From: a virus
Lineage: Duplodnaviria > Heunggongvirae > Uroviricota > Caudoviricetes
Strand: one strand, 5' to 3'
Virus record (IMG/VR): IMGVR_UViG_2778261534_000002
DNA: 52,137 nt
A model generated the notes under the pieces. The model did not search any database and had not been told where the DNA came from. It was given only the letters and a program-made list of their open reading frames with translations. The position numbers were made by a program, and so were the translations under genes. Position 1 is the stretch's first letter, and every line of letters begins with the position of its first letter. Shown here piece after piece: positions 2,102-50,824 of this stretch.

Positions 2102-4031
2102 CAATCCTTTACGAATTAATATTCAGTCTACTTTTGCTGATACGATCCCCGGCTATATGCCAAGTCGCTGGTCTTCAGAAGAATTAAGCGAAGATGACCT
2201 GATTTTTGAGGCGGCGACCTTAGAAGATATTGAGCTTGCCTATATGGGCAATGAAATTCTGGTTGTGTCTGACGAAGCTATGTTTGAGTCCATAACTACA
2301 ACCAGAATTCGGTTAGCTCAAACAATGCGAGCTTTCGTCCGTGCGCTGAATCGTGGCCTGAATGGTACGAATATTATGGCAGGGACTGATGAAGCTGGGA
2401 CCGATGAAAATGGACGTAATTGTATTGGTGGTGCGATTATCGGTCGTGTACGTCGGGTAGCTAATATCCCTGTTTTGACCGCGCAGATACCGCTTACTGA
2501 CGGGCAGAGTACAAGCATAATTTTCCACTCTCCAACAGCTGACGGGGCAAAAATAAAGAGTAACGACGAGCTTGTTGCATTTCAGTTTTTACTTAATAAG
2601 CGTAACGTAACTCACGTTGTCGCCCCGATTGGTGGGAGAGATGTTTCTTTAAGCCAGGTATGCCAGGCGCTATCTAATTTGATTGAGCGTAACAGCGAAA
2701 AATTTAAGAAAGCAAAAGAGCGCCAGGACAAAATGAAGGCAGATATTGAGAGTTATCTCAATGAAGCAGATAAACTGGCAGAAGAACGGTCAATAATGAT
2801 TGATCAGGTGGAAGTTGCGCAACGTGGGCTGACTGAAAAGCGTGCTGCTCTTACGGAGATGCAAAAAAAACTTGATGCCCAGAAAGCTATCAATGAGGAG
2901 TTACAAGCAAAACGCGATAAATTGTTGTCTTCTAAAGGAGAAAAAACGAAAGAACGAGCGTTTAGTGACCAGCTGCGACATGTAAAACATAATCTTGCCA
3001 TTGACGGAAAAACAGTGCTGGATAATGGCGCTGAAGTTAATTATGTCACGTCCGGCAGTGACAATTTCGTTACGATAGTAGCACCTGAAGGTAAATTCAG
3101 TATTGATGCCAGTGCTGTCAAAGGAGGCAGTTTGGCAGATGCTGCAACCAAATTACTTAAAGCCTACCGAGAGCATAACGCAGAAAAATATAAAGTTGAT
3201 TTGTTACCAGGCCAGCTGGAAGACTCCGAACCACCACAGACGGACCCCGAAACAAACCCAGTATCACAACCAGAGAGCCAAGATGTAGGTAAATACCACT
3301 ATGCACTTCAATCTCGCCCGGCTGGTGTTGGTGCTGTTCCGGATGGAAATAAAGCCGTGCTTGATCGTCCTGACCAGGCTGATCAGTATTACGAATATGC
3401 TCGTCACGGTATCATTACGTATGACCGTAAACTGACAGATGAAGAAGTCAGCCAGTACGAGTTGCTTTATCTTCCTGATGAAGATGAGCTGAAAGATTTT
3501 GCAGGCCAATTGGTTGCGTCCAGCATGTCGAAACATATTGATGGCTATGTGGACCTGTTTGGCAGTGACCTGAAAACATTCAAGGCGCAAGTGAAAATTC
3601 TTTTCCGCAAAGCGTTTCCAAACGTGGCGTATCCACTTAGTGATGGGGAGAACCTTTTCATTATGGACGTGTATAACGCCCTTCAAAATCATTCAAGCGA
3701 AGTAAAAACAGAGCATGTGGTTGAGCCAGAATCACAACCACAACCACAACCACAACCAGCACCAGAACAGGAGTCGGAGCCAGAAGAAGCGGGTGAATCA
3801 GCAAGTGAAGCTGATCAGGAAGCAGATAAAGCGCTGGAGTACCTGAAATCCGTGCCGGAGCAGTTTACATCCCGCGATCTGACGGTCATCAGTGCTGAAC
3901 TTGATCATGTGCAGGAAGCAGCAAACGCTCTAATCAGTGCAGGTCGATACGACGAGAACGAAGCCACTGTGGGTGCAGCAGTTGACTACCTGATCAATAT
4001 TCTGGCTGAAATTCAGCAGGGAGGTGTTTAA
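2094..4031 (+). CDS. DarA-like capsid-internal antirestriction protein
   Basis: 645 aa from ATG 2094 (GGAGG SD; ATGATTAA overlap with upstream stop); size and operon position match P1 DarA; coiled-coil region and PQ-repeat linker. Confidence 0.45.
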   Translation: MINNPLRINIQSTFADTIPGYMPSRWSSEELSEDDLIFEAATLEDIELAYMGNEILVVSDEAMFESITTTRIRLAQTMRAFVRALNRGLNGTNIMAGTDEAGTDENGRNCIGGAIIGRVRRVANIPVLTAQIPLTDGQSTSIIFHSPTADGAKIKSNDELVAFQFLLNKRNVTHVVAPIGGRDVSLSQVCQALSNLIERNSEKFKKAKERQDKMKADIESYLNEADKLAEERSIMIDQVEVAQRGLTEKRAALTEMQKKLDAQKAINEELQAKRDKLLSSKGEKTKERAFSDQLRHVKHNLAIDGKTVLDNGAEVNYVTSGSDNFVTIVAPEGKFSIDASAVKGGSLADAATKLLKAYREHNAEKYKVDLLPGQLEDSEPPQTDPETNPVSQPESQDVGKYHYALQSRPAGVGAVPDGNKAVLDRPDQADQYYEYARHGIITYDRKLTDEEVSQYELLYLPDEDELKDFAGQLVASSMSKHIDGYVDLFGSDLKTFKAQVKILFRKAFPNVAYPLSDGENLFIMDVYNALQNHSSEVKTEHVVEPESQPQPQPQPAPEQESEPEEAGESASEADQEADKALEYLKSVPEQFTSRDLTVISAELDHVQEAANALISAGRYDENEATVGAAVDYLINILAEIQQGGV

Positions 4032-4399
4032 TGACCATCTCTGTTTTAGACCGCCTGAAATTAGGTAAAGAGCTATCAGATCTAATGCAGGCGCAGAAAA
4101 CTGCGCCAGTATTGCAACGCGTCACCATTGGTAAGCAGATTGTTGATGTGATGCTGAAATTGGGCCTGGGGACTGCCGCGCAACCGGCAGCGGAACCGCA
4201 ACAACAGACTGATCCTATTGTAGATGAAGTCCCTAAGATAGTGACTGACTTCCTGGGCGGTGTGTTCACAAAGTCCACACAAATGGAATTTATTGATGCG
4301 CTGCGTGGGATCTCAAACTATGTTGGCGAGTTCCTTACGTTGGAGCAGGCTAAAGAGCAGACCATAAGCTGGGTGAAAGCTAACGGTTATGCCGGGTAA
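4031..4399 (+). CDS. DdrA-like small virion protein
   Basis: 122 aa, start overlaps darA-like stop, followed by intrinsic terminator; assigned by synteny. Confidence 0.35.
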   Translation: MTISVLDRLKLGKELSDLMQAQKTAPVLQRVTIGKQIVDVMLKLGLGTAAQPAAEPQQQTDPIVDEVPKIVTDFLGGVFTKSTQMEFIDALRGISNYVGEFLTLEQAKEQTISWVKANGYAG

Positions 4400-4402
4400 T
4401 CA

Positions 4403-4428
4403 AAAGGGGCTGAAATGCCCCTTTCACT
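4403..4428 (+). terminator. rho-independent terminator
   Basis: GGGGC-tgaaat-GCCCC stem followed by TTTCACTT. Confidence 0.5.
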
Positions 4429-4481
4429 TATCTGTTCTCACATAAATCACACACTTTTTACACTCACAGCTTTCTCTATAG

Positions 4482-5879
4482 TTGGAGTGTATTTTGAACA
4501 AATCAGTTACTTCTGCGCTTTCCGAGGCCGCAGATATTAACAGCGTCATTGCTCTGGTTTCTTCATTAGAGAGGAAAGAAACACGCCTGGGGCGAAGTAG
4601 CTACGTAGTCACCAGCAAAGGTGCAGAGGTAAAGACGGCTTTTAAGGTCGTTGACGCCAGCAGTCTGATCATTTCGAACAACCTTGACGGTGCGATTAAC
4701 CCGGCCTTCCCGGAAGAACTCCAACCACGAGATCGTACCCGGCTATCCAGCAAACTCCAGGTTAACCGTATTGCCTCCAATTTACGCCCGGCACAATTAA
4801 CGGATTCCGGTATGAGCAGCCACGGAGCGCCTATAGTTGGTCCGGACAACGTTGTTGAATCCGGCAACGGAAGGAGTATGGGTATCTGGCGTGCCTATGA
4901 GCAAGGACAGGCGGATGAGTATCGCCAGTACCTGATCGACCATGCGAAAGAGTTTGGTCTGAATCCTGACGAAATTTCGCAAATGTCTATGCCCGTACTG
5001 GTGCGAGAAAGACTCACAGATGTAGACCGCGCTCAATTTGCCCGCGATTCAAACATTAGTGATCTGCAAGAGATGGCAGCAAGTGAAAAAGCGTATGCGG
5101 ATGCGCAATTTCTCACTGAGAGCGTCATGGCGCTATTTAATCCTTCAGATGATGGAAATCTGCTGGCGCGGTCCAATGATGCGTTTATTCGTGCGTTTTT
5201 GCGCGAAATTGGCGATACAGCGATGGCAGGCTTGCTTACTGCCGATGGGCGTCCCACGAAACAGCTTATCGATCGCATCCAGAATGCAATTTTTGCCAAA
5301 GCGTACAAGGATGAAAGGCTTGTTCGGCTGGTGTCGGAAGAGCCAGATCCGGAAATGCGTAATATCCTGACCGCATTAAATACGGCAGCCAGCGATTTTG
5401 CGCAAATGCAGTCGCTGTCTGGCGACGCTCACCATGACGCAGTAACAGGCTTAGTGGACGGTATAGAGCAGGTTAATGGCCTGGATACACAGGCGATAGC
5501 AGCACTCCAGGAAGCAATTAATCTTGTTCGTGAAGCCAAAGACAACGGTCAGGCCGTTGAAGAAGTGATCGCCCAAAGGGGGTTATTCGGCGACAGTACA
5601 CCGGAAGCTGAGGCATTGGCGCTATTCATCGTAGCAAATAATCGCAGTGCGAAGCGTATGGGGGCAGCATTCAAAAAAATGGCGCAAAAAATCAACGACG
5701 AGCTGACTCATAAACAACAGGCATTGGGCGATATGTTCGGCGGTGGCGATGTTGATCTGCGTCGTATTTTGTCTGCTGTATCTGATGAAATTGAGGGTGA
5801 ATTTGGCGAAGGGAAAGGTCTGAACTTTGCTATGTTTGAAAATTCTACAGATCTAAATAATTGCCGTACGGAAAACTAA
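4482..5879 (+). CDS. virion-associated protein (DdrB-like?)
   Basis: 465-aa ORF (track start is TTG; true start uncertain), acidic C-terminus, between dar-like genes and portal-like gene. Confidence 0.35.
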   Translation: MECILNKSVTSALSEAADINSVIALVSSLERKETRLGRSSYVVTSKGAEVKTAFKVVDASSLIISNNLDGAINPAFPEELQPRDRTRLSSKLQVNRIASNLRPAQLTDSGMSSHGAPIVGPDNVVESGNGRSMGIWRAYEQGQADEYRQYLIDHAKEFGLNPDEISQMSMPVLVRERLTDVDRAQFARDSNISDLQEMAASEKAYADAQFLTESVMALFNPSDDGNLLARSNDAFIRAFLREIGDTAMAGLLTADGRPTKQLIDRIQNAIFAKAYKDERLVRLVSEEPDPEMRNILTALNTAASDFAQMQSLSGDAHHDAVTGLVDGIEQVNGLDTQAIAALQEAINLVREAKDNGQAVEEVIAQRGLFGDSTPEAEALALFIVANNRSAKRMGAAFKKMAQKINDELTHKQQALGDMFGGGDVDLRRILSAVSDEIEGEFGEGKGLNFAMFENSTDLNNCRTEN

Positions 5880-9854: not shown

Positions 9855-9898
9855 GTGTTAGAAAATTAATTTGCTGTTTCTAAATCGGAATGTATGAT
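9855..9898 (+). promoter_or_regulatory. operator-like motif overlapping sigma70-like promoter of immunity module 1
   Basis: GTGTTAGAAAATTAA (9855-9869) followed by -35 TTGCTG (9871-9876), 16-nt spacer, -10 TATGAT (9893-9898). Confidence 0.45.
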
Positions 9899-10084
9899 CT
9901 GCATCATCGACTGAAGTCATCCATTGCTGAAATTTTTAGTTGATCTTCCATGTTTTCAGGCTTATATTCATGCCGTCGTAGCAAATTCTGCGACCGGGTT
10001 TGACAGCCTGAATACTTACGCGGACAACCGCACATTTCCGATATTGCGGTATTTTTGTGTCCGTAAAACCACGTTACGCCCGAA

Positions 10085-10180
10085 TTATGGTGGGGCGTGA
10101 TGGGGAGGCTTCGGCCTGCTGGTTTCGTAAGTGCCAGTCTGTCAACCCTGTCACGTCCTGCCACCTGTTTGACAGCGGGT
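10085..10180 (+). ncRNA. c4-like antisense RNA candidate
   Basis: structured leader upstream of icd-like gene; TCGTAAGT (10125-10132) is complementary to ACTTACGA at the icd RBS (10197-10204); GGC-ttcg-GCC tetraloop hairpin; boundaries approximate. Confidence 0.3.
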
Positions 10181-10214
10181 CGCAGGTTGTTTATCAACTT
10201 ACGAGGCCGTAACT

Positions 10215-10439
10215 ATGGTTAATGCCAATCCTTGCTCACGCCCAGAATTCATCTGGCGTTTCCACTCCCTGCAAAAACACTGCGATCACTTCGCAATTGC
10301 CGCAACCGAAAAAGAAGCCCGTTCTCTGATCCCTGATCAGTATGGTGTTCTTACTGGTCGTTTCTCTACTTCCCCACAACCAAACACTAATCCCTGGTAT
10401 CGCAATATTACCAATCCCGGAATTGCGGAGGCACACTGA
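10215..10439 (+). CDS. Icd-like small protein of immunity module 1
   Basis: 74 aa; paralog of 49339..49554 (shared EFIWRF and AATE-EARS motifs); stop overlaps ant start (TGATG). Confidence 0.5.
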   Translation: MVNANPCSRPEFIWRFHSLQKHCDHFAIAATEKEARSLIPDQYGVLTGRFSTSPQPNTNPWYRNITNPGIAEAH

Positions 10440-11146
10440 TGGAAATCTGCATTCTTGAAAAGCCATCAATGACCAGCATTGAGATCGCGGAGCTGGTGGG
10501 AAGTCGCCCGGATAACGTTAAACGCACTATTGAACGCTTGAGTAAATCAGGTGTTATTCCACTTCCTCCAATGGAGGTTTCCGAAAATATCAATAACTTA
10601 GGATTTAAAGTTAAAAATTCACACTACGTCTTCGAAGGCGAGCAAGGCAAGCGTGACAGTATCATTGTCGTTGCGCAGCTTTCTCCCGAATTTACCGCCC
10701 GGCTGGTGGACCGCTGGCGCGAACTGGAAGAACAAGTACGCCAGCCGTTGACCGAAATAGAGATGATCGCCGCAATGGCTGCAAATGCAGTTCAGCAGCA
10801 AAAGCGGCTTCATGTTGTTGAGTCAAAGGTTAGCCAGGTGGTAGAAACCGTCGAGCAAATCAAGAAGGGCAACATGCCAGATGGTTACATTGGCTACCGC
10901 CAGCTGGCTGCGAAATGTGGCCTGACCGAAGCCAAATGCCGCAACCTTGTCAACGCTTACCGGATTCCCACCGATACACATGAGTTTTTAACTCCAGAGG
11001 GGGTATTGTCGCGTCGTTCCATCGTGGCCTTATCTCCCTTCATGAATGCTTTTAACCGGATGATGTCGGAGGCTGAACACCGAGGAAAACGCTGGTATCA
11101 CCCCAAAATGGGGCAATTCCAGGTGATCGGTTGGGGAGGTGAGTGA
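10439..11146 (+). CDS. ant: antirepressor (Ant-like)
   Basis: 235 aa; N-terminal SIEIAELVG...PDNVKRTIE region typical of Rha/Ant-type phage regulators; paralog of 49554..50480; translationally coupled to icd-like gene. Confidence 0.55.
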   Translation: MEICILEKPSMTSIEIAELVGSRPDNVKRTIERLSKSGVIPLPPMEVSENINNLGFKVKNSHYVFEGEQGKRDSIIVVAQLSPEFTARLVDRWRELEEQVRQPLTEIEMIAAMAANAVQQQKRLHVVESKVSQVVETVEQIKKGNMPDGYIGYRQLAAKCGLTEAKCRNLVNAYRIPTDTHEFLTPEGVLSRRSIVALSPFMNAFNRMMSEAEHRGKRWYHPKMGQFQVIGWGGE

Positions 11147-11343
11147 TGGACATCATGCAGGCGGTAAAAAAAATCAGGGAAGGACAGGCTGAAGTGTGCC
11201 GCCGTAAAGCATGGAGTGTTGGTGTATGGGCCTGGCCTGATAATTACTCTACTACCGGATGGTTTTGTATTAATGGACTCCAGGTCCGGGAAGTTGATTT
11301 ATCGACGGCTGATATAGTCGGTAATGATTGGATCGTGACTTGA
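11143..11343 (+). CDS. small DUF2829-like protein
   Basis: 66 aa; CRRKAW...GNDWIVT signature shared with four other domains in the window; start overlaps ant stop. Confidence 0.45.
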   Translation: MMDIMQAVKKIREGQAEVCRRKAWSVGVWAWPDNYSTTGWFCINGLQVREVDLSTADIVGNDWIVT

Positions 11344-11351
11344 AGCGTGAT

Positions 11352-11376
11352 GCCCCGGCCTGGCCGGGGCTTTTTT
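11352..11376. terminator. bidirectional intrinsic terminator
   Basis: GCCCCGGCC-tgg-CCGGGGC then TTTTTT, between convergent genes. Confidence 0.65.
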
Positions 11377-23280: not shown

Positions 23281-23357
23281 GATGGTGTAGCTCAGTAGGA
23301 TAGAGCAGCAGCCTTCTAAGCTGTCGGTCGGTGGTTCGAATCCACCCACCATCGCCA
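23281..23357 (+). tRNA. tRNA-Arg (anticodon UCU)
   Basis: 77 nt; 7-bp acceptor stem GATGGTG/CACCATC, anticodon loop CTTCTAA, T-loop GGTTCGAATCC, 3' CCA. Confidence 0.9.
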
Positions 23358-23362
23358 ATTTA

Positions 23363-23449
23363 GGGGAGTTAGTCCGTAGGGGTAGCGGGGTAGACTGTAA
23401 ATCTACTGTCATTGCGACTCGGGTGGTTCGACTCCATCACTCCCCACCA
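23363..23449 (+). tRNA. tRNA-Tyr (anticodon GUA), long variable arm
   Basis: 87 nt; acceptor GGGGAGT/ACTCCCC, anticodon arm GTAGA-CTGTAAA-TCTAC, variable-arm stem GTC/GAC, 3' CCA; D-arm atypical. Confidence 0.7.
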
Positions 23450-23453
23450 AATT

Positions 23454-23529
23454 GCCGGTTTAGCTCAGTTGGTAGAGCGCCTGCCTTGTAAGCAGGATGT
23501 CAGCGGTTCGAGTCCGTTAACCGGCACCA
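23454..23529 (+). tRNA. tRNA-Thr (anticodon UGU)
   Basis: 76 nt; TAGCTCAGTTGGTAGAGC D-arm, anticodon loop CTTGTAA, T-loop GGTTCGAGTCC, 3' CCA. Confidence 0.9.
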
Positions 23530-23844: not shown

Positions 23845-23931
23845 CTGATGTGCCGCAACTACAGTAGTGCGCGCTTTGCGGGGCTTGCTACAACCCTGTG
23901 TCGGAGTTCAGCACCGACCATCACAATCACT

Positions 23932-24018
23932 GGAGAGTAGGGAGCATGGTGCTCAAGCGGTCTTGAAAACCGTCCCATTGCGCAAGCGATGATGGTTCGA
24001 TTCCATTACTCTCCGCCA
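23932..24018 (+). tRNA. tRNA-Ser (anticodon UGA), long variable arm
   Basis: 87 nt; acceptor GGAGAGT/ACTCTCC, anticodon loop CTTGAAA, T-loop GGTTCGATTCC, 3' CCA. Confidence 0.85.
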
Positions 24019-24111: not shown

Positions 24112-24142
24112 CAAGTGCTCTTACCATTGCGGTGAATGCGGC
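24112..24142. repeat. 30-nt spacer repeat, copy 3
   Basis: CAAGTGCTCTTACCATTGCGGTGAATGCGGC. Confidence 0.5.
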
Positions 24143-24281
24143 TAAGCGCACGCGGAACAGTTAAAACAATCCTCCTTAGTGGTTAAGTCAAACATCCCGG
24201 CGTTAATTGTTAACTGGTTAACGTCACCTGGAGGCACCAGGCACCGCAGCTTTTTTATTCGGTAAATAATGGAGTGAGAGG

Positions 24282-25480: not shown

Positions 25481-25556
25481 GGCCCTTTAGCTCAGTGGTT
25501 AGAGCTGGCGACTCATAATCGCACGGTCACCGGTTCAAGTCCGGTAGGGGCCACCA
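25481..25556 (+). tRNA. tRNA-Ile2 (anticodon CAU, lysidine type) or tRNA-Met
   Basis: 76 nt; very close to E. coli ileX-type sequence as recalled (GGCCC.TTAGCTCAGTGGTTAGAGC...CTCATAA...GGTTCAAGTCC...GGGGCCACCA). Confidence 0.85.
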
Positions 25557-30375: not shown

Positions 30376-31413
30376 TTACCAGAGCTTCGCGGCGTACTGC
30401 GTTTGGGGGAATGTGTATCCGTAACGTTCTTCGATTGCTTTGCCGTATTTTTTACGAGCTTCATTCAGTTTAATGCCGGTCAGGTCGTCTCCAGAGGCCA
30501 TCATTACGTCTAACAATTCCAGATCCATTTTATCCAGCCTTGCCATTGCTTCACGTGATGTACGTATCTTACGCTCAATGATATGGCGAATAGCCGGATC
30601 GGCATCCTCCAGCATCTTAGCGGATTTCTGCTTAAGGCTTTCATTGCGAATATCGATGTTCCTTAAGATGTACGACTTCGCAACGTAGCTTGGCTGGTGT
30701 TTTTCCAGGTCACGAACACGATATAAGTTAAAATCGCCGAGAAGGCTGCAAGGTACCGATTCGACGCCAGAATAAATTGTAATGCTCCGGCGTTCACCAA
30801 CATTATTGACAACGGGGATCGTTGTCTTCGGTAGTCTTGCGAAAACCAATGCGCCATGTGCGCCAACTCTAAAGCGAGAAAGGGCATTGCTGCCTTCGAT
30901 GTTTGTTGTCAGCACAACATCTGTATATGCCTCTTTACGCGCCCGGTAGATCTCGCCTTCAGGCTCAGCTTCAAAGAAGCGCTGTTCTTCTTCAAGAGCA
31001 CCTACAATTTGAGAAAAAACCCTATTTTTCAGGCTTTTCTTTATGATTTTGTCGTATTTTTTGAGCAATTGTTCACGTGTAAATGTACGTGTTGTTGTAG
31101 CGCTTTGCACAACAACATGCGTGCTTTGATTGGTGTCCTCAATGATGAATGGGATCGGAGAATATACAGACTCAACAATGTTCGACGCTTTGCCGTCGGC
31201 ATCGCGGCACATGTCAACGAAGGCTTTCCATTCAGCAAGACATTTTTCAGCTTCTTCTAATATGTTTTGGTCATGCGTTAATGCAACATGGCGGAATTCC
31301 TCGCCAGCATAACTGGTATCATGGAAAACAGAGTTTGCGACCACCAGCTCTTTCCACCGTTCAGCGGTTTGCAGGAACCGTTTGTACTCTTTCTCGATCG
31401 ACTTCTTACTCAT
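30376..31413 (-). CDS. c1-locus protein, candidate immunity regulator of unknown family
   Basis: 345 aa at the position of c1/coi in P1 (between pacB and the lox-equivalent site); no similarity to P1 C1 as I recall it; operator-like motif 15-29 nt upstream of its start. Confidence 0.5.
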   Translation of the reverse strand: MSKKSIEKEYKRFLQTAERWKELVVANSVFHDTSYAGEEFRHVALTHDQNILEEAEKCLAEWKAFVDMCRDADGKASNIVESVYSPIPFIIEDTNQSTHVVVQSATTTRTFTREQLLKKYDKIIKKSLKNRVFSQIVGALEEEQRFFEAEPEGEIYRARKEAYTDVVLTTNIEGSNALSRFRVGAHGALVFARLPKTTIPVVNNVGERRSITIYSGVESVPCSLLGDFNLYRVRDLEKHQPSYVAKSYILRNIDIRNESLKQKSAKMLEDADPAIRHIIERKIRTSREAMARLDKMDLELLDVMMASGDDLTGIKLNEARKKYGKAIEERYGYTFPQTQYAAKLW

Positions 31414-34232: not shown

Positions 34233-34910
34233 ATGAATAACATGGCAACGAAAGAGCTTTTTAAGTTCCTTCCCAAATACAAAGCTCACAAAAACGTTAG
34301 TGCATCGAAAATCAAAAATGTTGTTATTTTCGGAGTAACTGATGCCCCACTTTGGGGCTGCATCGAACTCGTTGAACCAAAAGGGGCAACAGTTTGTGTT
34401 GACGCAATGTTTTTACAAAAACACCGACCAAAAACTGGCGGGTATCTGATCGTTTATGAAAACGGTTATCTGTTCTATGCCCCGGAGAAACCATTTGAGG
34501 AACGCTATGGCCTGGTTAACGACGCCTCCAAAAATGGAACCACGGTCATCATTACGGATGACAACGGCGTGATGATTAATCTTACCGGGAGCGTAACTAT
34601 TTCTGCTGGTGGCATCACCACCCAGCAAGAAGAAATCGACCTTGAAGCAGCCGACTTTTCTGACGCGCTGATGTGGCTGAAGGATGGCAAGAAAGTTGCT
34701 CGACGCGGGTGGAACGGCGAAAACCAATTCTGCTGGCTGGTTCCTGAAGGACAGTACCCGGCACGAATGGAAGCCATTAAGGGATATTTCCCCGGCGACC
34801 TCGTTCCGTATGGTGCTTATTTCGCCTTAAAAAATGCACAAGGTGTAGTTGTTCCGTGGGTTCCTTCTGTAGGCGACTTACTGGCATGTGACTGGTTTGT
34901 AGTGGAGTGA
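34233..34910 (+). CDS. protein with C-terminal DUF2829-like domain
   Basis: 225 aa; C-terminus ALMWLKDGKKVARRGWNGENQFCWL ... PWVPSVGDLLACDWFVVE is the clearest DUF2829-like domain in the window. Confidence 0.5.
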   Translation: MNNMATKELFKFLPKYKAHKNVSASKIKNVVIFGVTDAPLWGCIELVEPKGATVCVDAMFLQKHRPKTGGYLIVYENGYLFYAPEKPFEERYGLVNDASKNGTTVIITDDNGVMINLTGSVTISAGGITTQQEEIDLEAADFSDALMWLKDGKKVARRGWNGENQFCWLVPEGQYPARMEAIKGYFPGDLVPYGAYFALKNAQGVVVPWVPSVGDLLACDWFVVE

Positions 34911-47947: not shown

Positions 47948-48526
47948 ATGCAGAAACAGAGTTATTGGGAGAAACAGAGACAAAAAGCCATGCAAAAATT
48001 GGCTGACCCGGCCTGGCGAGAGGAACAAAGGGCAAAGCGCCTTCAACAAGCTCAACGCCAGCAGCAGCGAGCGAGAGAAAAAGCCGCATCGCCTGAATAT
48101 CGGCAAAAGAAAATTGAAAAAGCAAAACAATATGAACAGCGGAGAAAAGATAAATCTGTATCCGCTCCGCCCAAAAAAACACGCACGTCACGCGGCCTGA
48201 AGGGCAGATCACTCACAGCCGATGAACGCCGGATACAGACCGCTATCGGTACTCTCCCCTGCATTGCCTGCCATATTCACGGGCAACATAGCCCAGTGGT
48301 ATCCCTGCACCATATCTTCGGGAGAACGGCAGAGAACGCGCATAAATATGTCCTCCCTTTGTGTAAATGGCACCACCAGTACGCAGCGCCAGCCGAGGTC
48401 CGAGACCAATATCCCTGGCTGGTCCCTGTTCATGCTGATGGAAAAATAGGCGGAAAAGCAGATTTCATGCGGCACAATGCCGATGAAATGACGTTGTATC
48501 TGATGGCGATTGAATTGATAAATTAG
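47948..48526 (+). CDS. Ref-like HNH endonuclease
   Basis: 192 aa; K/R/Q-rich low-complexity N-terminal 80 aa followed by Cys/His motifs CIACHIHG ... LHHIFG ... CKWHHQ, the architecture described for P1 Ref. Confidence 0.5.
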   Translation: MQKQSYWEKQRQKAMQKLADPAWREEQRAKRLQQAQRQQQRAREKAASPEYRQKKIEKAKQYEQRRKDKSVSAPPKKTRTSRGLKGRSLTADERRIQTAIGTLPCIACHIHGQHSPVVSLHHIFGRTAENAHKYVLPLCKWHHQYAAPAEVRDQYPWLVPVHADGKIGGKADFMRHNADEMTLYLMAIELIN

Positions 48527-48537
48527 TTTTCTAACAT
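48523..48537. promoter_or_regulatory. operator-like 15-bp motif (consensus copy)
   Basis: TTAGTTTTCTAACAT overlapping the ref-like stop; followed by -35 TTGAAT / -10 TACATT-like promoter. Confidence 0.4.
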
Positions 48538-48857
48538 TTTAAGTTGAATTGAAAAACACTCCGATGTACATTCACTACCGATTGGCACACCGGTCAACTT
48601 TTTGAGACAAACTATTTAGTTTTTCGTATTATTGCCGCCGCCATACCTATGGCGGTGCAATATAGGTGGCTGAAAAGCCCCCGTTGACTCACGGTGTTCC
48701 AGCCTTTATTGCGCCGCCACCAGACCGTGGAACAGTCGATGGCGGCTCCGAAAGCAAGGAGTCACTACACTATGAACAACTACAGTCTTTCCCCATCACT
48801 CGTCGTCCACCACTCACGCGATAATCTGCATTCTTTACTCGCGCTGGGGGTGTCAAA

Positions 48858-49025
48858 ATGACCGTTCGCTACCTCAACTTTCAAATCCAGAACATCACTG
48901 GCGGTTGCTATGACTGGTTTGTCACTCTCGGAAAAGAAGTGATCACCGGGAAGCTGGATGAAGTGAAGGCTAAAGCAATGGCCTACGCCTGCAAGCAAGC
49001 CAGGAAGAAATCCACCAAAGCATAA
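48858..49025 (+). CDS. small ORF (55 aa)
   Basis: found by eye; coupled by ATGA overlap to a 29-aa ORF (48772..48861) that has SD AAGGAG; followed by terminator; an antisense 126-aa track ORF competes. Confidence 0.25.
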   Translation: MTVRYLNFQIQNITGGCYDWFVTLGKEVITGKLDEVKAKAMAYACKQARKKSTKA

Positions 49026-49131
49026 AAATACAGACTGTTGCGCCCTGGCATTATCGTGGGGTATATTTCTACGGCACCTTAGAAAAACGGGTGCCGGGAT
49101 TGGAACCCCGGATAATGTCAAAGGCGACACA

Positions 49132-49153
49132 GACGCCGAAAGCGTCTTTTTTT
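49132..49153 (+). terminator. rho-independent terminator
   Basis: GACGC-cgaaa-GCGTC followed by TTTTTTT. Confidence 0.65.
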
Positions 49154-49169
49154 GTGTCATGCCATCGCA

Positions 49170-49300
49170 CAGCCATACGTAGCGTTTAGCTCAGAGATCA
49201 ATGGTAGTGCTGGCTGGGCTGCCGAAAGGCAGGCCGGTTCCCTTTGACGCCGGTAGTTCCAACCCAGTCAGTGCTACCGCCATTGAGATTGGAACCTCAC
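49170..49300 (+). ncRNA. c4-like antisense RNA candidate (module 2)
   Basis: structured leader upstream of second icd-like gene; CCTTTGAC (49232-49239) is complementary to GTCAAAGG at the icd RBS (49311-49318); CTGCC-gaaa-GGCAG hairpin; boundaries approximate. Confidence 0.3.
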
Positions 49301-49338
49301 GCGGTAGCTCCTTAACTTAGTCAAAGGAGGCTGCCAAT

Positions 49339-49554
49339 ATGGCTACTATCCCCACCCCAACTCATTCTGAATTTATCTGGCGTTTCTATTCCTGCCAAAA
49401 ACACCTCTATATCTGCGTCATGGCTGCAACCGAAGCAGAAGCGCGCTCATACCTTCCCGAAGAACCCTGCATTTTTGCTGCTCGCTTCACTCTTGATGCG
49501 ATGGAGATCCTCAATTACTGGAATCTGCCGATGAACTGCGTGGAGGTGCACTGA
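49339..49554 (+). CDS. Icd-like small protein of immunity module 2
   Basis: 71 aa; paralog of 10215..10439; SD AAGGAGG; stop overlaps ant start. Confidence 0.5.
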   Translation: MATIPTPTHSEFIWRFYSCQKHLYICVMAATEAEARSYLPEEPCIFAARFTLDAMEILNYWNLPMNCVEVH

Positions 49555-50480
49555 TGAATCTGTCCATCTCTCAAAAAGCGACAATGACCAGCATTGAGAT
49601 CGCGGAACTGGTAGGTAAGCGCCCTGATAACGTTAAACGCACCATTGAACACCTGGCGGAACGGGGGGTAATATCTTTTCCTCAAATTGAGGAAAAGCCC
49701 ACCGCAGGCCGCCCGGCGAGCTATTACGTCTTCGAAGGCGAGCAAGGCAAGCGCGATAGTATTGTCGTCGTCGCACAGCTCTCTCCCGAATTTACCGCCC
49801 GGCTGGTGGACCGCTGGCGCGAACTGGAGAATGCCCGGGTACAGTTAAAATCAAAAGCCGAAATCCTGGCTGAAATGGCGCAAATGCATCTTGAGCATGA
49901 ACGCCGGATCAACGCCGTTAATGCCCAGGTAGCCGAAGTATCGGCACAAGTGTCCAAAGTCGCTGAAACCGTCGAGCAAATCAAGAAAGGCAATATGCCG
50001 GAAGGCTACATTGGCTACCGCCAGCTGGCGGCGAAATGTGGCCTGACTGAAGCCAAATGCCGCAACCTTGTCAACGCTTACCGGATTCCCACCGATACGC
50101 ATGAGTTTTTAACTCCAGATGGTTTGCTTGCGAGACGCTCCATTGTGGCCCTGGCCCCCTTCCGGAAAGCCTTTAAGCAGGTGATGTCGGAGGCAGAACC
50201 ACGCAATAAACGCTGGTATCATCCAAAGATGGGGATGTTTCAGGCAATCCACCATCCTGTGCCTGAAAGTCCAAAGGCAAACCTGTCGTTGCATACCGCC
50301 AGAGAGAGGATTAAAACAGGGTATGCAATCGTATGCCGTCGAGCATCTTGGCCTGAAGGTGTATGGGTATGGCCCGAAGGTGGATCACGAAAGCACTGGC
50401 GCACTATCCGGGATGGGAAAATCCATGCGATTGATTTAGCTCCAGAGGATGTTGTTGCTACGGACTGGATTGTTAGTTAA
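49554..50480 (+). CDS. antirepressor (Ant-like) fused to C-terminal DUF2829-like domain
   Basis: 308 aa; first ~235 aa paralogous to 10439..11146; last ~60 aa (CRRASWPEGVW ... VATDWIVS) paralogous to the separate 66-aa ORF 11143..11343. Confidence 0.55.
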   Translation: MNLSISQKATMTSIEIAELVGKRPDNVKRTIEHLAERGVISFPQIEEKPTAGRPASYYVFEGEQGKRDSIVVVAQLSPEFTARLVDRWRELENARVQLKSKAEILAEMAQMHLEHERRINAVNAQVAEVSAQVSKVAETVEQIKKGNMPEGYIGYRQLAAKCGLTEAKCRNLVNAYRIPTDTHEFLTPDGLLARRSIVALAPFRKAFKQVMSEAEPRNKRWYHPKMGMFQAIHHPVPESPKANLSLHTARERIKTGYAIVCRRASWPEGVWVWPEGGSRKHWRTIRDGKIHAIDLAPEDVVATDWIVS

Positions 50481-50488
50481 TTACTGTT

Positions 50489-50510
50489 GCCCCGGCCTGT
50501 CCGGGGCTTT
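50489..50510 (+). terminator. terminator-like hairpin
   Basis: GCCCCGGCC-tgt-CCGGGGC, near-identical to the hairpin at 11352; only a short T-run follows. Confidence 0.45.
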
Positions 50511-50539
50511 AACTACTAAATAACCGGATTCTCCGCACG

Positions 50540-50824
50540 ATGAAGAAAATAGATTTCACTTACTCTGCTGCCACAATCCAGCGACGTTTCCGTCTCATAA
50601 GGGAAGTGGAACTATCAAAAAACTGGTATCAAATTCTACTGGATGAAGAGTTTTCACTGATGGTTATAGCAGAAAAATTGGCTATGCCGAATGACCGGCA
50701 CAAGGTCATAGCCAGCCTGGATCTGGTGACAAACAGATACTGGGAATCCGAGGAACTACTTGAAGTTGGCTTGATACGCGAGATGATAGAACAGGCTGTT
50801 CCCCTCCACTTACAGCAACCATAA
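50540..50824 (+). CDS. hypothetical protein
   Basis: 94-aa ORF downstream of immunity module 2. Confidence 0.4.
   Translation: MKKIDFTYSAATIQRRFRLIREVELSKNWYQILLDEEFSLMVIAEKLAMPNDRHKVIASLDLVTNRYWESEELLEVGLIREMIEQAVPLHLQQP

Follow-up and report, generated by a model that had tools for sequence, protein, structure and literature searches.

In the immI operon of phages P1 and P7 (c4, icd and ant1/ant2), the antisense RNA C4 is reported to block the ribosome-binding site of icd and hence the expression of the coupled ant gene (Citron and Schuster 1990 and later work, cited in PMC3632133 and PMC12197685). In phage P4, CI acts mainly through transcription termination. An 'IsrK-C4 immunity system' has been described as common to P4 (seqA/CI), P1, P7, N15 and lambdoid prophages (PMC3632133). 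The DNA analysed here is a 52,137-nucleotide (nt) stretch of a Caudoviricetes virus (IMG/VR record IMGVR_UViG_2778261534_000002; the window, meaning the whole stretch), which belongs to the D6-like plasmid prophages within the P1 group. Positions 49027-50501 of the window very probably constitute a complete accessory IsrK-C4-type 'anti-immunity' operon of the same kind as P1 immI, Gifsy-1 isrK, P4 seqA/CI and CA RNA-icd-ant of N15. An earlier note on this DNA had proposed a second, diverged c4-icd-ant module at 48523-50510, with the icd-ant arrangement at 49339..50480. The module is real and that reading is supported, but the arrangement is already known, both in kind and in the D6-like family.

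This operon, here called module 2, resembles immI of P1 and P7 in several respects: the fold of its C4 RNA (Rfam RF01695), the order of its recognition sites (a1/b1, a'/b', a2/b2), the position of b2 on the icd ribosome-binding site, the start of the effector gene on the stop codon of the Icd-like open reading frame (ORF), and specificity set by the a and b sequences. All six sites of immI are annotated in the P1 record. Module 2 differs from P1 in that its leader is scored by the Rfam model isrK and not by c4-a1b1, its a/b sequences are TTGGAAC/GTCAAAGG and not TTGACAG/GTTAGTG, and its effector is a Rha-family protein with a fused phrog_7385 domain and no detectable similarity to P1 Ant1/Ant2. 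The P1 promoter is under C1 through the operator Oc4/Op51, whereas no operator abuts the promoter of module 2, which is moreover an extra copy. The P4 seqA/CI and N15 CA RNA-icd-antABC systems belong to the same RNA family, and were compared by one BLAST match and the literature statement; the section of the leader query that spans C4 and what follows it matched the P4 cI/'ash' region at 73%.

The isrK - orf45/STnc1160 - anrP region of Gifsy-1 also shares the design, with an IsrK RNA that has its own promoter and a leaky terminator, a C4-family RNA 25-45 nt downstream, the six-site logic, and a b2 that covers the Shine-Dalgarno (SD) sequence of an antirepressor-like gene. Unlike module 2, it has no icd, b2 lies directly on the anrP ribosome-binding site, and the element is an integrated lambdoid prophage. 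In Gifsy-1, the Rfam matches to isrK (34316-34240) and to C4 (34214-34131) precede the antirepressor-like gene STM2616, and all six sites carry the recognition sequences a = TTGGCGT and b = TCACCG. The C4 region of Gifsy-1 has been treated as a 45-codon 'orf45' and a processed RNA, STnc1160, and the base pairs G28-C162 and G31-C159 have been tested (PMC4825925); in the numbering of this analysis, these map to a1 and a'. Gifsy-1 is the only isrK-type member for which mutational tests of a1:a' and activation in trans have been shown.

Module 2 lies between ref and a pmgF-like gene, the same place as in Escherichia phage D6 and in plasmid pYU39_89. Positions 48400-50600 are 96.4% identical to D6, positions 48900-50520 match many E. 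coli and Salmonella plasmids (approximately 92 kb each) at 100%, and pYU39_89, for which a second region has been noted (PMC6799933), is 98.1% identical at the module 2 locus. In D6, the genes annotated in this stretch are those for a Ref-like nuclease and three small ORFs labelled hypothetical, orf83 ('Icd-like protein'), orf82 ('anti-repressor Ant') and the pmgF-like gene, and the D6 record annotates both icd/ant pairs; in the D6 and plasmid records inspected, the proteins of module 2 are annotated and its RNAs are not. The window encodes two full C4 antisense RNAs that pass the Rfam gathering threshold, each followed by an Icd-like ORF and then a Rha-family 'Ant' ORF. The features of module 2 are as follows.

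49038..49067, + strand: isrK-type promoter (TTGCGC, 18 nt, TATATT), kept in D6-like plasmids and RCS47
49074..49152, + strand: IsrK-like leader RNA (RF01394; Rfam 62.7 bits, gathering score 50)
49100-49106, + strand: a1, TTGGAAC, in the leader hairpin loop
49117-49124, + strand: b1, GTCAAAGG, in the leader linker
49131-49147 and T run, + strand: intrinsic terminator at the leader end
49197..49284, + strand: C4 antisense RNA (RF01695; Rfam 77.1 bits, model positions 1-87, gathering score 45)
49219-49232, + strand: GAAA-tetraloop hairpin CTGCC-GAAA-GGCAG, within C4
49241-49248, + strand: b', CCTTTGAC, in a C4 hairpin loop
49256-49262, + strand: a', GTTCCAA, in the C4 linker
49289-49295, + strand: a2, TTGGAAC, in the loop of a small hairpin
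49320-49327, + strand: b2, GTCAAAGG, overlapping the SD sequence AAGGAGG at 49324-49330
49339..49554, + strand: icd2, encoding a 71-amino acid (aa) Icd-like protein (NCBIfam NF033153, 49.4 bits; phrog_1426, E 3.7e-41)
49554..50480, + strand: ant2, encoding a 308-aa Rha-family protein annotated 'anti-repressor Ant' (phrog_63, E 2.9e-65)
50489..50507, + strand: GC-rich hairpin GCCCCGG-CCTGT-CCGGGGC followed by TTT, read from the sequence

The order of these elements is the complete six-site design of the P1 type: a leader with a1, b1 and a terminator, a C4 RNA with b' and a', then a2, and last b2 at the ribosome-binding site of icd. The cognate Watson-Crick matches to a2 (49289) and b2 (49320) are 7 nt and 8 nt, respectively. 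The minimum free energy fold of C4 reproduces the outer stem, the two inner hairpins and the single-stranded linker (z-score -4.9). The score of the C4 RNA and the limits of both ORFs bear out the module as the earlier note had described it, and the structured leader with a GAAA-tetraloop hairpin was found where the list places it. The antisense pair reported in the note also exists, but its coordinates have to be raised by 9 nt, from 49232-49239 to 49241-49248 for CCTTTGAC and from 49311-49318 to 49320-49327 for GTCAAAGG. The a'/a2 pair (49256, 49289) and the decoys a1 (49100) and b1 (49117) had been missed. The distance from the TATATT hexamer to the RNA start equals that upstream of Gifsy-1 isrK, the promoter of which has demonstrated activity (PMC4825925). 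A motif scan of the window found no operator-like 17-mer near the isrK-type promoter.

By family match, Icd2 is a predicted Icd-like cell-division inhibitor; Icd1, its counterpart in the first module, also passes the NF033153 cutoff of 25 bits, with 40 bits. Icd2 is 63% identical to P1 Icd and 45% identical to Icd1. The stop codon of icd2 overlaps the start codon of ant2 (TGATG at 49552-49556), from which translational coupling of the two genes is predicted. Both Ant-like ORFs match phrog_63 ('anti-repressor Ant'). For the Pfam family Phage_pRha (PF09669, cutoff 29.9 bits), Ant2 scores exactly at the cutoff (29.9 bits) and Ant1 of the first module scores below it (26.4 bits); PGAP labels a protein identical to Ant2 as 'Rha family transcriptional regulator'. 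The two Ant-like proteins are 66% identical over 232 aa, and are nearer alike in the C-terminal half, where nucleotide tracts reach 90-97%. Residues 247-307 of Ant2 match phrog_7385. The last approximately 65 aa of Ant2 (50283-50480) are homologous to a separate 66-aa ORF of module 1 (11143-11343; 38% identity, phrog_7385), and this small domain is therefore found fused to Ant in module 2 and free-standing in module 1. A DUF2829/Tad2-like identity for the domain and the 66-aa ORF, considered from the motif, was dropped, as Pfam gave no match.

The comparison module, module 1 (9856..11370, + strand), consists of the following features.

9856-9872: operator-like site, exact copy of a 17-mer
9940-9968, + strand: promoter
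9962-10014: leader, c4-a1b1 (RF03163; Rfam), with a1 at 10000 and b1 at 10014
10083-10168, + strand: C4 (RF01695; Rfam 69.6 bits)
10169 and 10197: targets a2 and b2, respectively (a = TTGACAG, b = ACTTACG)
10215-10439, + strand: icd
10439-11146, + strand: ant
11143-11343, + strand: 66-aa ORF, with a TGATG overlap at the end of ant1
11352-11370, + strand: terminator, homologous to the hairpin at 50489-50507

The c4-icd part of module 1 is 85% identical to P1 immI, and module 1 is therefore the P1 orthologue. A divergence of about 50 percent between the modules, as first estimated, is too high overall: their global alignment has 64% identity, where the leader and C4 are at 50-60%, icd is at 50-70% and ant is a mosaic of 43-97%. 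Identical tracts of 46 nt (10682-10727 / 49782-49827) and 50 nt (10928-10977 / 50049-50098) lie inside stretches of 90-97% identity in ant1 and ant2, which suggests gene conversion between the copies or a recent common donor. The isrK model scores the module 1 leader (9975-10056) at 46.5 bits, just below threshold, and c4-a1b1 scores Gifsy-1 isrK at 48.1 bits (34277-34329). Since the two models match overlapping sequence in these leaders, both families appear to describe one kind of leader element; of the two, c4-a1b1 alone is in the C4 clan.

The specificities of the two modules differ at the level of sequence, as the earlier note had proposed. The recognition sequences are TTGGAAC / GTCAAAGG in module 2 versus TTGACAG / ACTTACG in module 1, and contiguous complementarity extends over 7-8 nt between each C4 RNA and its cognate a1/b1 and a2/b2, versus 4-5 nt with the leader of the other module. 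Pairing energies were calculated with the C4 segments that are unpaired in the consensus; full-length C4 against targets of 50-65 nt gave uniformly large, uninformative energies. The loop-segment duplexes have energies of -8.8 to -14.4 kcal/mol for cognate and -3.5 to -9.7 kcal/mol for non-cognate combinations. Because their recognition sequences differ, the RNA gates of modules 1 and 2 should not see each other, and no cross-repression between the two C4 RNAs would be expected within the replicon.

The pairings of module 2 are conserved through compensatory change. In nine isrK-C4 leaders (those of the window, D6, RCS47, 673R5, phiP27 and four Stx phages), 97.8% of a1:a' and b1:b' positions and 100% of a':a2 and b':b2 positions are paired, and ten of the fifteen pairs in each set have changed on both sides. 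Controls in which the partners were slid by 1-3 columns were at most 48% paired, or 47% for a':a2 and b':b2, and no more than one shuffle in 500 attained the values seen in the real leaders (cells paired, pairs and cells changed on both sides, and covariation score). A survey of 44 D6-like loci from plasmids and IMG/VR identified four combinations of a and b alleles, with all three copies of each site concordant every time.

GGAAC / GTCAAAGG: 20 loci, including the window
GGAAC / GCAAAAGG: 11 loci
GAGAC / GCAAAAGG: 3 loci, including phage D6
GGTCT / GTCAAAGG: 3-4 loci

RCS47 adds GAGAC/GTCAAAGG, so that each of the two most frequent a alleles is represented with each of the two most frequent b alleles. 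D6 has module 2 at the same locus as the window, but both of its alleles differ: a and b are changed at all six sites, while the rest of the leader is 94% identical. Such concerted change at interleaved sites, in leaders otherwise 94-99% identical, argues for selection on pairing and specificity. The intact ORFs, the covarying pairings and the presence of the module in at least 92 plasmids at 94-100% identity all suggest that module 2 is not a pseudo-copy.

The segment 49027-50501 is a mobile accessory cassette that is gained or lost as a unit, because it is absent from some D6-like relatives and occupies another locus in P1-like phages. At least 92 plasmids hold at least 80% of the cassette, 61 of these at 95% identity or more, and 446 plasmid records (E. 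coli and Salmonella elements) match some part of it. In the IMG/VR contig L042 (1668-1699), the whole cassette is absent, with the equivalent of position 49026 joined to that of 50502 and both flanks 94-95% identical to the window; the E. fergusonii D6-like plasmid L018 also lacks the cassette and has conserved flanks. In another IMG/VR contig, L024 (1740-1800), recombination between the a1 and a2 repeats has removed b1, the terminator and C4, and the icd start codon has changed from ATG to ATC. This single case has the pattern expected if unrepressed icd-ant is harmful. A fourth relative, the IMG/VR contig L041 (2160), has lost most of ant. The P1-like phages RCS47 (3910-5600) and 673R5 (2500-3735) have an isrK-C4-icd-effector cassette between pacB and c1, and JL22 matches both the cassette-leader and the immI queries; all three retain the canonical immI besides the cassette. 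Capture of a second module, which had been suggested at the outset, is thus supported by precise absence in syntenic D6-like genomes and by the other locus in RCS47 and 673R5 (and presumably JL22). Just upstream of the RCS47 cassette, a P1-type C1 operator-like sequence, TTGCTCTAATAAATT, was spotted by eye. A search of P1 with the module 2 leader gave no match, and the closest other leaders are those of lambdoid phages (Stx phages, phiP27 and Gifsy-1). The effector differs from cassette to cassette: RCS47 has a 371-aa Ant and 673R5 a Roi-like protein, whereas in Gifsy-1 AnrP follows the leader directly.

Upstream of the cassette, on the side of ref, is a second set of regulatory elements.

48510-48515 and 48532-48537: candidate promoter (TTGAAT, 16 nt, TAACAT), with its spacer and -10 overlapped by the operator-like site
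48520..48536, - strand: operator-like 17-mer, TGTTAGAAAACTAATTT, exact copy
48544..48572, + strand: second candidate sigma-70 promoter (TTGAAT, 17 nt, TACATT), with a predicted start near 48580
48645..48724, + strand: third, diverged C4-like RNA (Rfam C4 40.2 bits, under the gathering score of 45)
48728-48733 and 48759-48764, + strand: candidate targets of the third C4-like RNA, a2 TGGAAC and b2 GAGTCA, respectively (complementarity read from the sequence)
48772..48861, + strand: 29-aa remnant Icd-like ORF, with a stop codon that overlaps the next start codon (ATGA)
48858..49025, + strand: 55-aa ORF (phrog_7786, E 3.6e-43), orf85 of D6

The operator-like site belongs to a dispersed asymmetric 17-mer, TGTTAGAAAAYTAATTT, with 11 occurrences in the window at three or fewer mismatches versus 0.34 expected (8649, 9856, 20800, 22049, 26992, 31425, 32835, 42924, 42937, 47870 and 48520). 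One copy precedes module 1 (9856-9872), another precedes ref (47870), and a third (31425) precedes a 345-aa gene (30376-31413, - strand) that is weakly similar to P1-type C1 (21% identity, E 2e-7). This set of sites is probably the operator set of a D6-type C1 repressor, which would bind them. The operator-like site that had been reported at 48523-48590 is real, but its assignment needs correction: the site at 48520 is approximately 520 bp upstream of the isrK-type promoter, with the third C4-like RNA and two small ORFs between, and the operator and promoter elements at approximately 48520-48572 serve the upstream third C4-like unit first. Repressor-controlled transcription from that unit may also read into the cassette. 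The TACATT hexamer and flank of the promoter at 48544-48572 are conserved in D6-like relatives and RCS47; this promoter is absent from the list made by a simple promoter scan.

The third C4-like RNA has an E value of 2.8e-4 in the whole window and 1.8e-6 in a 341-nt search space, and has the parts of a C4 RNA: besides the outer stem there are two hairpins, one with a GAAA loop and one with UGACUC in its loop (b'), and GUUCCAG forms the linker (a'). Its candidate b2 overlaps the SD sequence AAGGAG (48756-48761). The body of the RNA is 93-100% conserved while its flanks fall to approximately 60%, and one stem position varies among relatives from U.U to U.G to C-G. In the relatives from plasmids and IMG/VR, a', b' and the target sites are invariant, and give no covariation. 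A search of the phage collection with 48540-49035 matched D6 only. At the place of the remnant ORF, L018 from E. fergusonii carries an annotated 61-aa Icd-like gene that is intact and of which the window lacks approximately 140 bp; conservation of the 55-aa ORF extends to 33 viral contigs and 119 plasmids. The operator-like site, promoters, third C4-like RNA, remnant icd and 55-aa ORF are a probable older, smaller C4-gated unit, at the 3' end of which the cassette would have been inserted. A hairpin homologous to that at 50489-50507 directly follows orf85 in L042 and L018; the window hairpin probably served as the terminator of the older unit until the cassette was inserted.

A mechanism can be proposed for module 2. 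Transcription from the operator-free promoter at 49038-49067 would produce a leader RNA that mostly ends at its own terminator, an IsrK-like RNA displaying a1 and b1. Read-through transcripts would include the C4 RNA, which would be excised as in P1. The a' linker and b' loop of C4 would pair with the a2 and b2 sites of the read-through mRNA, covering the ribosome-binding site of icd2, and because ant2 starts on the icd2 stop codon, a block of icd2 translation would also block Ant2. The a1/b1 leader could pair with the same surfaces of C4, and may act as a competitor in cis or in trans that sets the threshold. Each RNA gate would control its own Rha-family Ant. The sequence analysis shows the RNA and ORF families, the complementarities with their covariation, and where the cassette lies and which relatives have or lack it; C4 processing, repression in trans, the antirepressor activity and target of Ant2, and the use of the operators by a C1-like repressor are inferred.

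Several observations weigh against this interpretation. The support for the proposed function in this replicon comes from sequence, and the putative antirepressor role of Ant2 and its target are suggested by PHROG labels and gene position. BLASTP detected no similarity of Ant2 to P1 Ant1 (E 0.28), nor any to the Ant encoded by the cassette in RCS47 (E 0.14), and the Ant of module 1 is likewise not of the P1 Ant1/Ant2 type. The two antirepressor circuits envisaged in the earlier note are distinct in the recognition sequences of their RNA gates, but their 'Ant' proteins are of the Rha family, not detectably related to P1 Ant1. A few relatives have lost the cassette or carry it in damaged form (L024, L041 and L042), so it is dispensable. 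Six nt (GTTCCA/TGGAAC) are common to a' in the third C4-like RNA and the a sites of the window allele of module 2, making some cross-talk within the ref locus possible. With regard to the leader, IsrK supplied in trans raised AnrP translation more than 100-fold in Gifsy-1, but this effect was explained as remodelling of mRNA structure together with orf45 translation, not as titration of C4, and co-expression of STnc1160 gave no relief of IsrK toxicity (PMC4825925). Due to that explanation and the STnc1160 result, the decoy role of the leader stays hypothetical.

The alternative that deserves most attention accepts a working cassette but gives Ant2 some role other than that of a second antirepressor of the replicon's own C1-like repressor: it may act on the repressors of other resident prophages, in cross-talk of the Gifsy type, or it may be a DNA-binding regulator of the Rha/Roi type, with the gate just silencing a toxic icd-ant pair. 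This is rather unlikely, although it fits the Rha-family winged-helix character of Ant2 and its lack of detectable similarity to P1 Ant1, the fact that lambdoid Stx phages, phiP27 and Gifsy-1 have the nearest leaders and Ant-like genes, the variety of effectors downstream of the leader in RCS47, 673R5 and Gifsy-1, and an isrK-type promoter that has no operator-like site nearby. On the other side, Ant1 of module 1 is of the same family and 66% identical, so both probably share a target, and phrog_63 is annotated as anti-repressor.

There is little likelihood that module 2 is a silent or decaying duplicate, a relic that hitch-hiked in when a lambdoid prophage or a different P1-like element recombined with the replicon. 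Relatives do exist that lack the cassette (L042, L018), its C4 (L024) or most of its ant (L041), and the unit directly upstream already holds a decayed icd; but in the window the promoter, leader, terminator, C4, SD sequence and both overlapping ORFs are all intact, the plasmids that retain most of the cassette number at least 92, and close relatives differ at all six sites together, a pattern that requires selection on pairing. The coupling of C4 loss with loss of the icd start codon in L024 would also be hard to explain for a silent operon. It is very improbable that the two C4 RNAs cross-react to form one redundant circuit in place of two independent ones. They have a common fold and 50-60% identity, and short RNA contacts can tolerate mismatches, but non-cognate complementarity (4-5 nt contiguous, -3.5 to -9.7 kcal/mol) falls short of cognate complementarity (7-8 nt, -8.8 to -14.4 kcal/mol). 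The interpretation of 49027-50501 as a complete accessory IsrK-C4-type operon is preferred to all of these.

Some ORF labels that run across C4 RNAs and their leaders are likely annotation artefacts. An 'ash family protein' of PGAP (WP_071526433.1), present in at least seven plasmid records, is a 39-codon ORF across the C4 of module 2 (49201-49320; 1802-1921 in L004), a situation that recurs in the old 'ash/cI' ORF of P4 and 'orf45' of Gifsy-1; in the records of Stx phages, the isrK-C4 leader lies inside extended coding sequences named 'regulatory protein' or 'antirepressor'. Neither the antisense-strand ORFs at 48780-49160 and 9904-10197 nor the 39-aa 'ash' ORF had a match in Pfam or NCBIfam, and the 'ash family' label could not be traced to any model in either database. 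Elsewhere in the window are a cluster of four tRNA genes and sub-threshold matches that are tRNA-Sec-like (44.6 bits) and STnc100-like (39.4 bits) (23281-23526, 25481-25553, 23931-24015, 24128-24248).

Orthogonality of the gates, the allele combinations of module 2, the presence or absence of the cassette and the third C4-like RNA were not found stated in the literature searched; the kind of system has been described since 1990, and the gain in knowledge is incremental. A broader picture can be drawn tentatively, as possible but short of an even chance. The replicon may have three C4-type gates: immI and two in tandem at ref, where an operator-preceded older unit reads into an IsrK-C4-icd-ant cassette. 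Reshuffling of a and b sequences among D6-like plasmids could then constitute a combinatorial code of heteroimmunity, and the cassette could serve as an exchangeable anti-immunity weapon between co-infecting phage-plasmids. C4-type RNA-gated antirepressor operons determine if a related element that enters the cell can activate the plasmid prophage already present. With two gates of differing specificities, immunity among D6-like phage-plasmids depends on matching at two loci, and allele polymorphism would shape which plasmid prophages coexist or induce each other.

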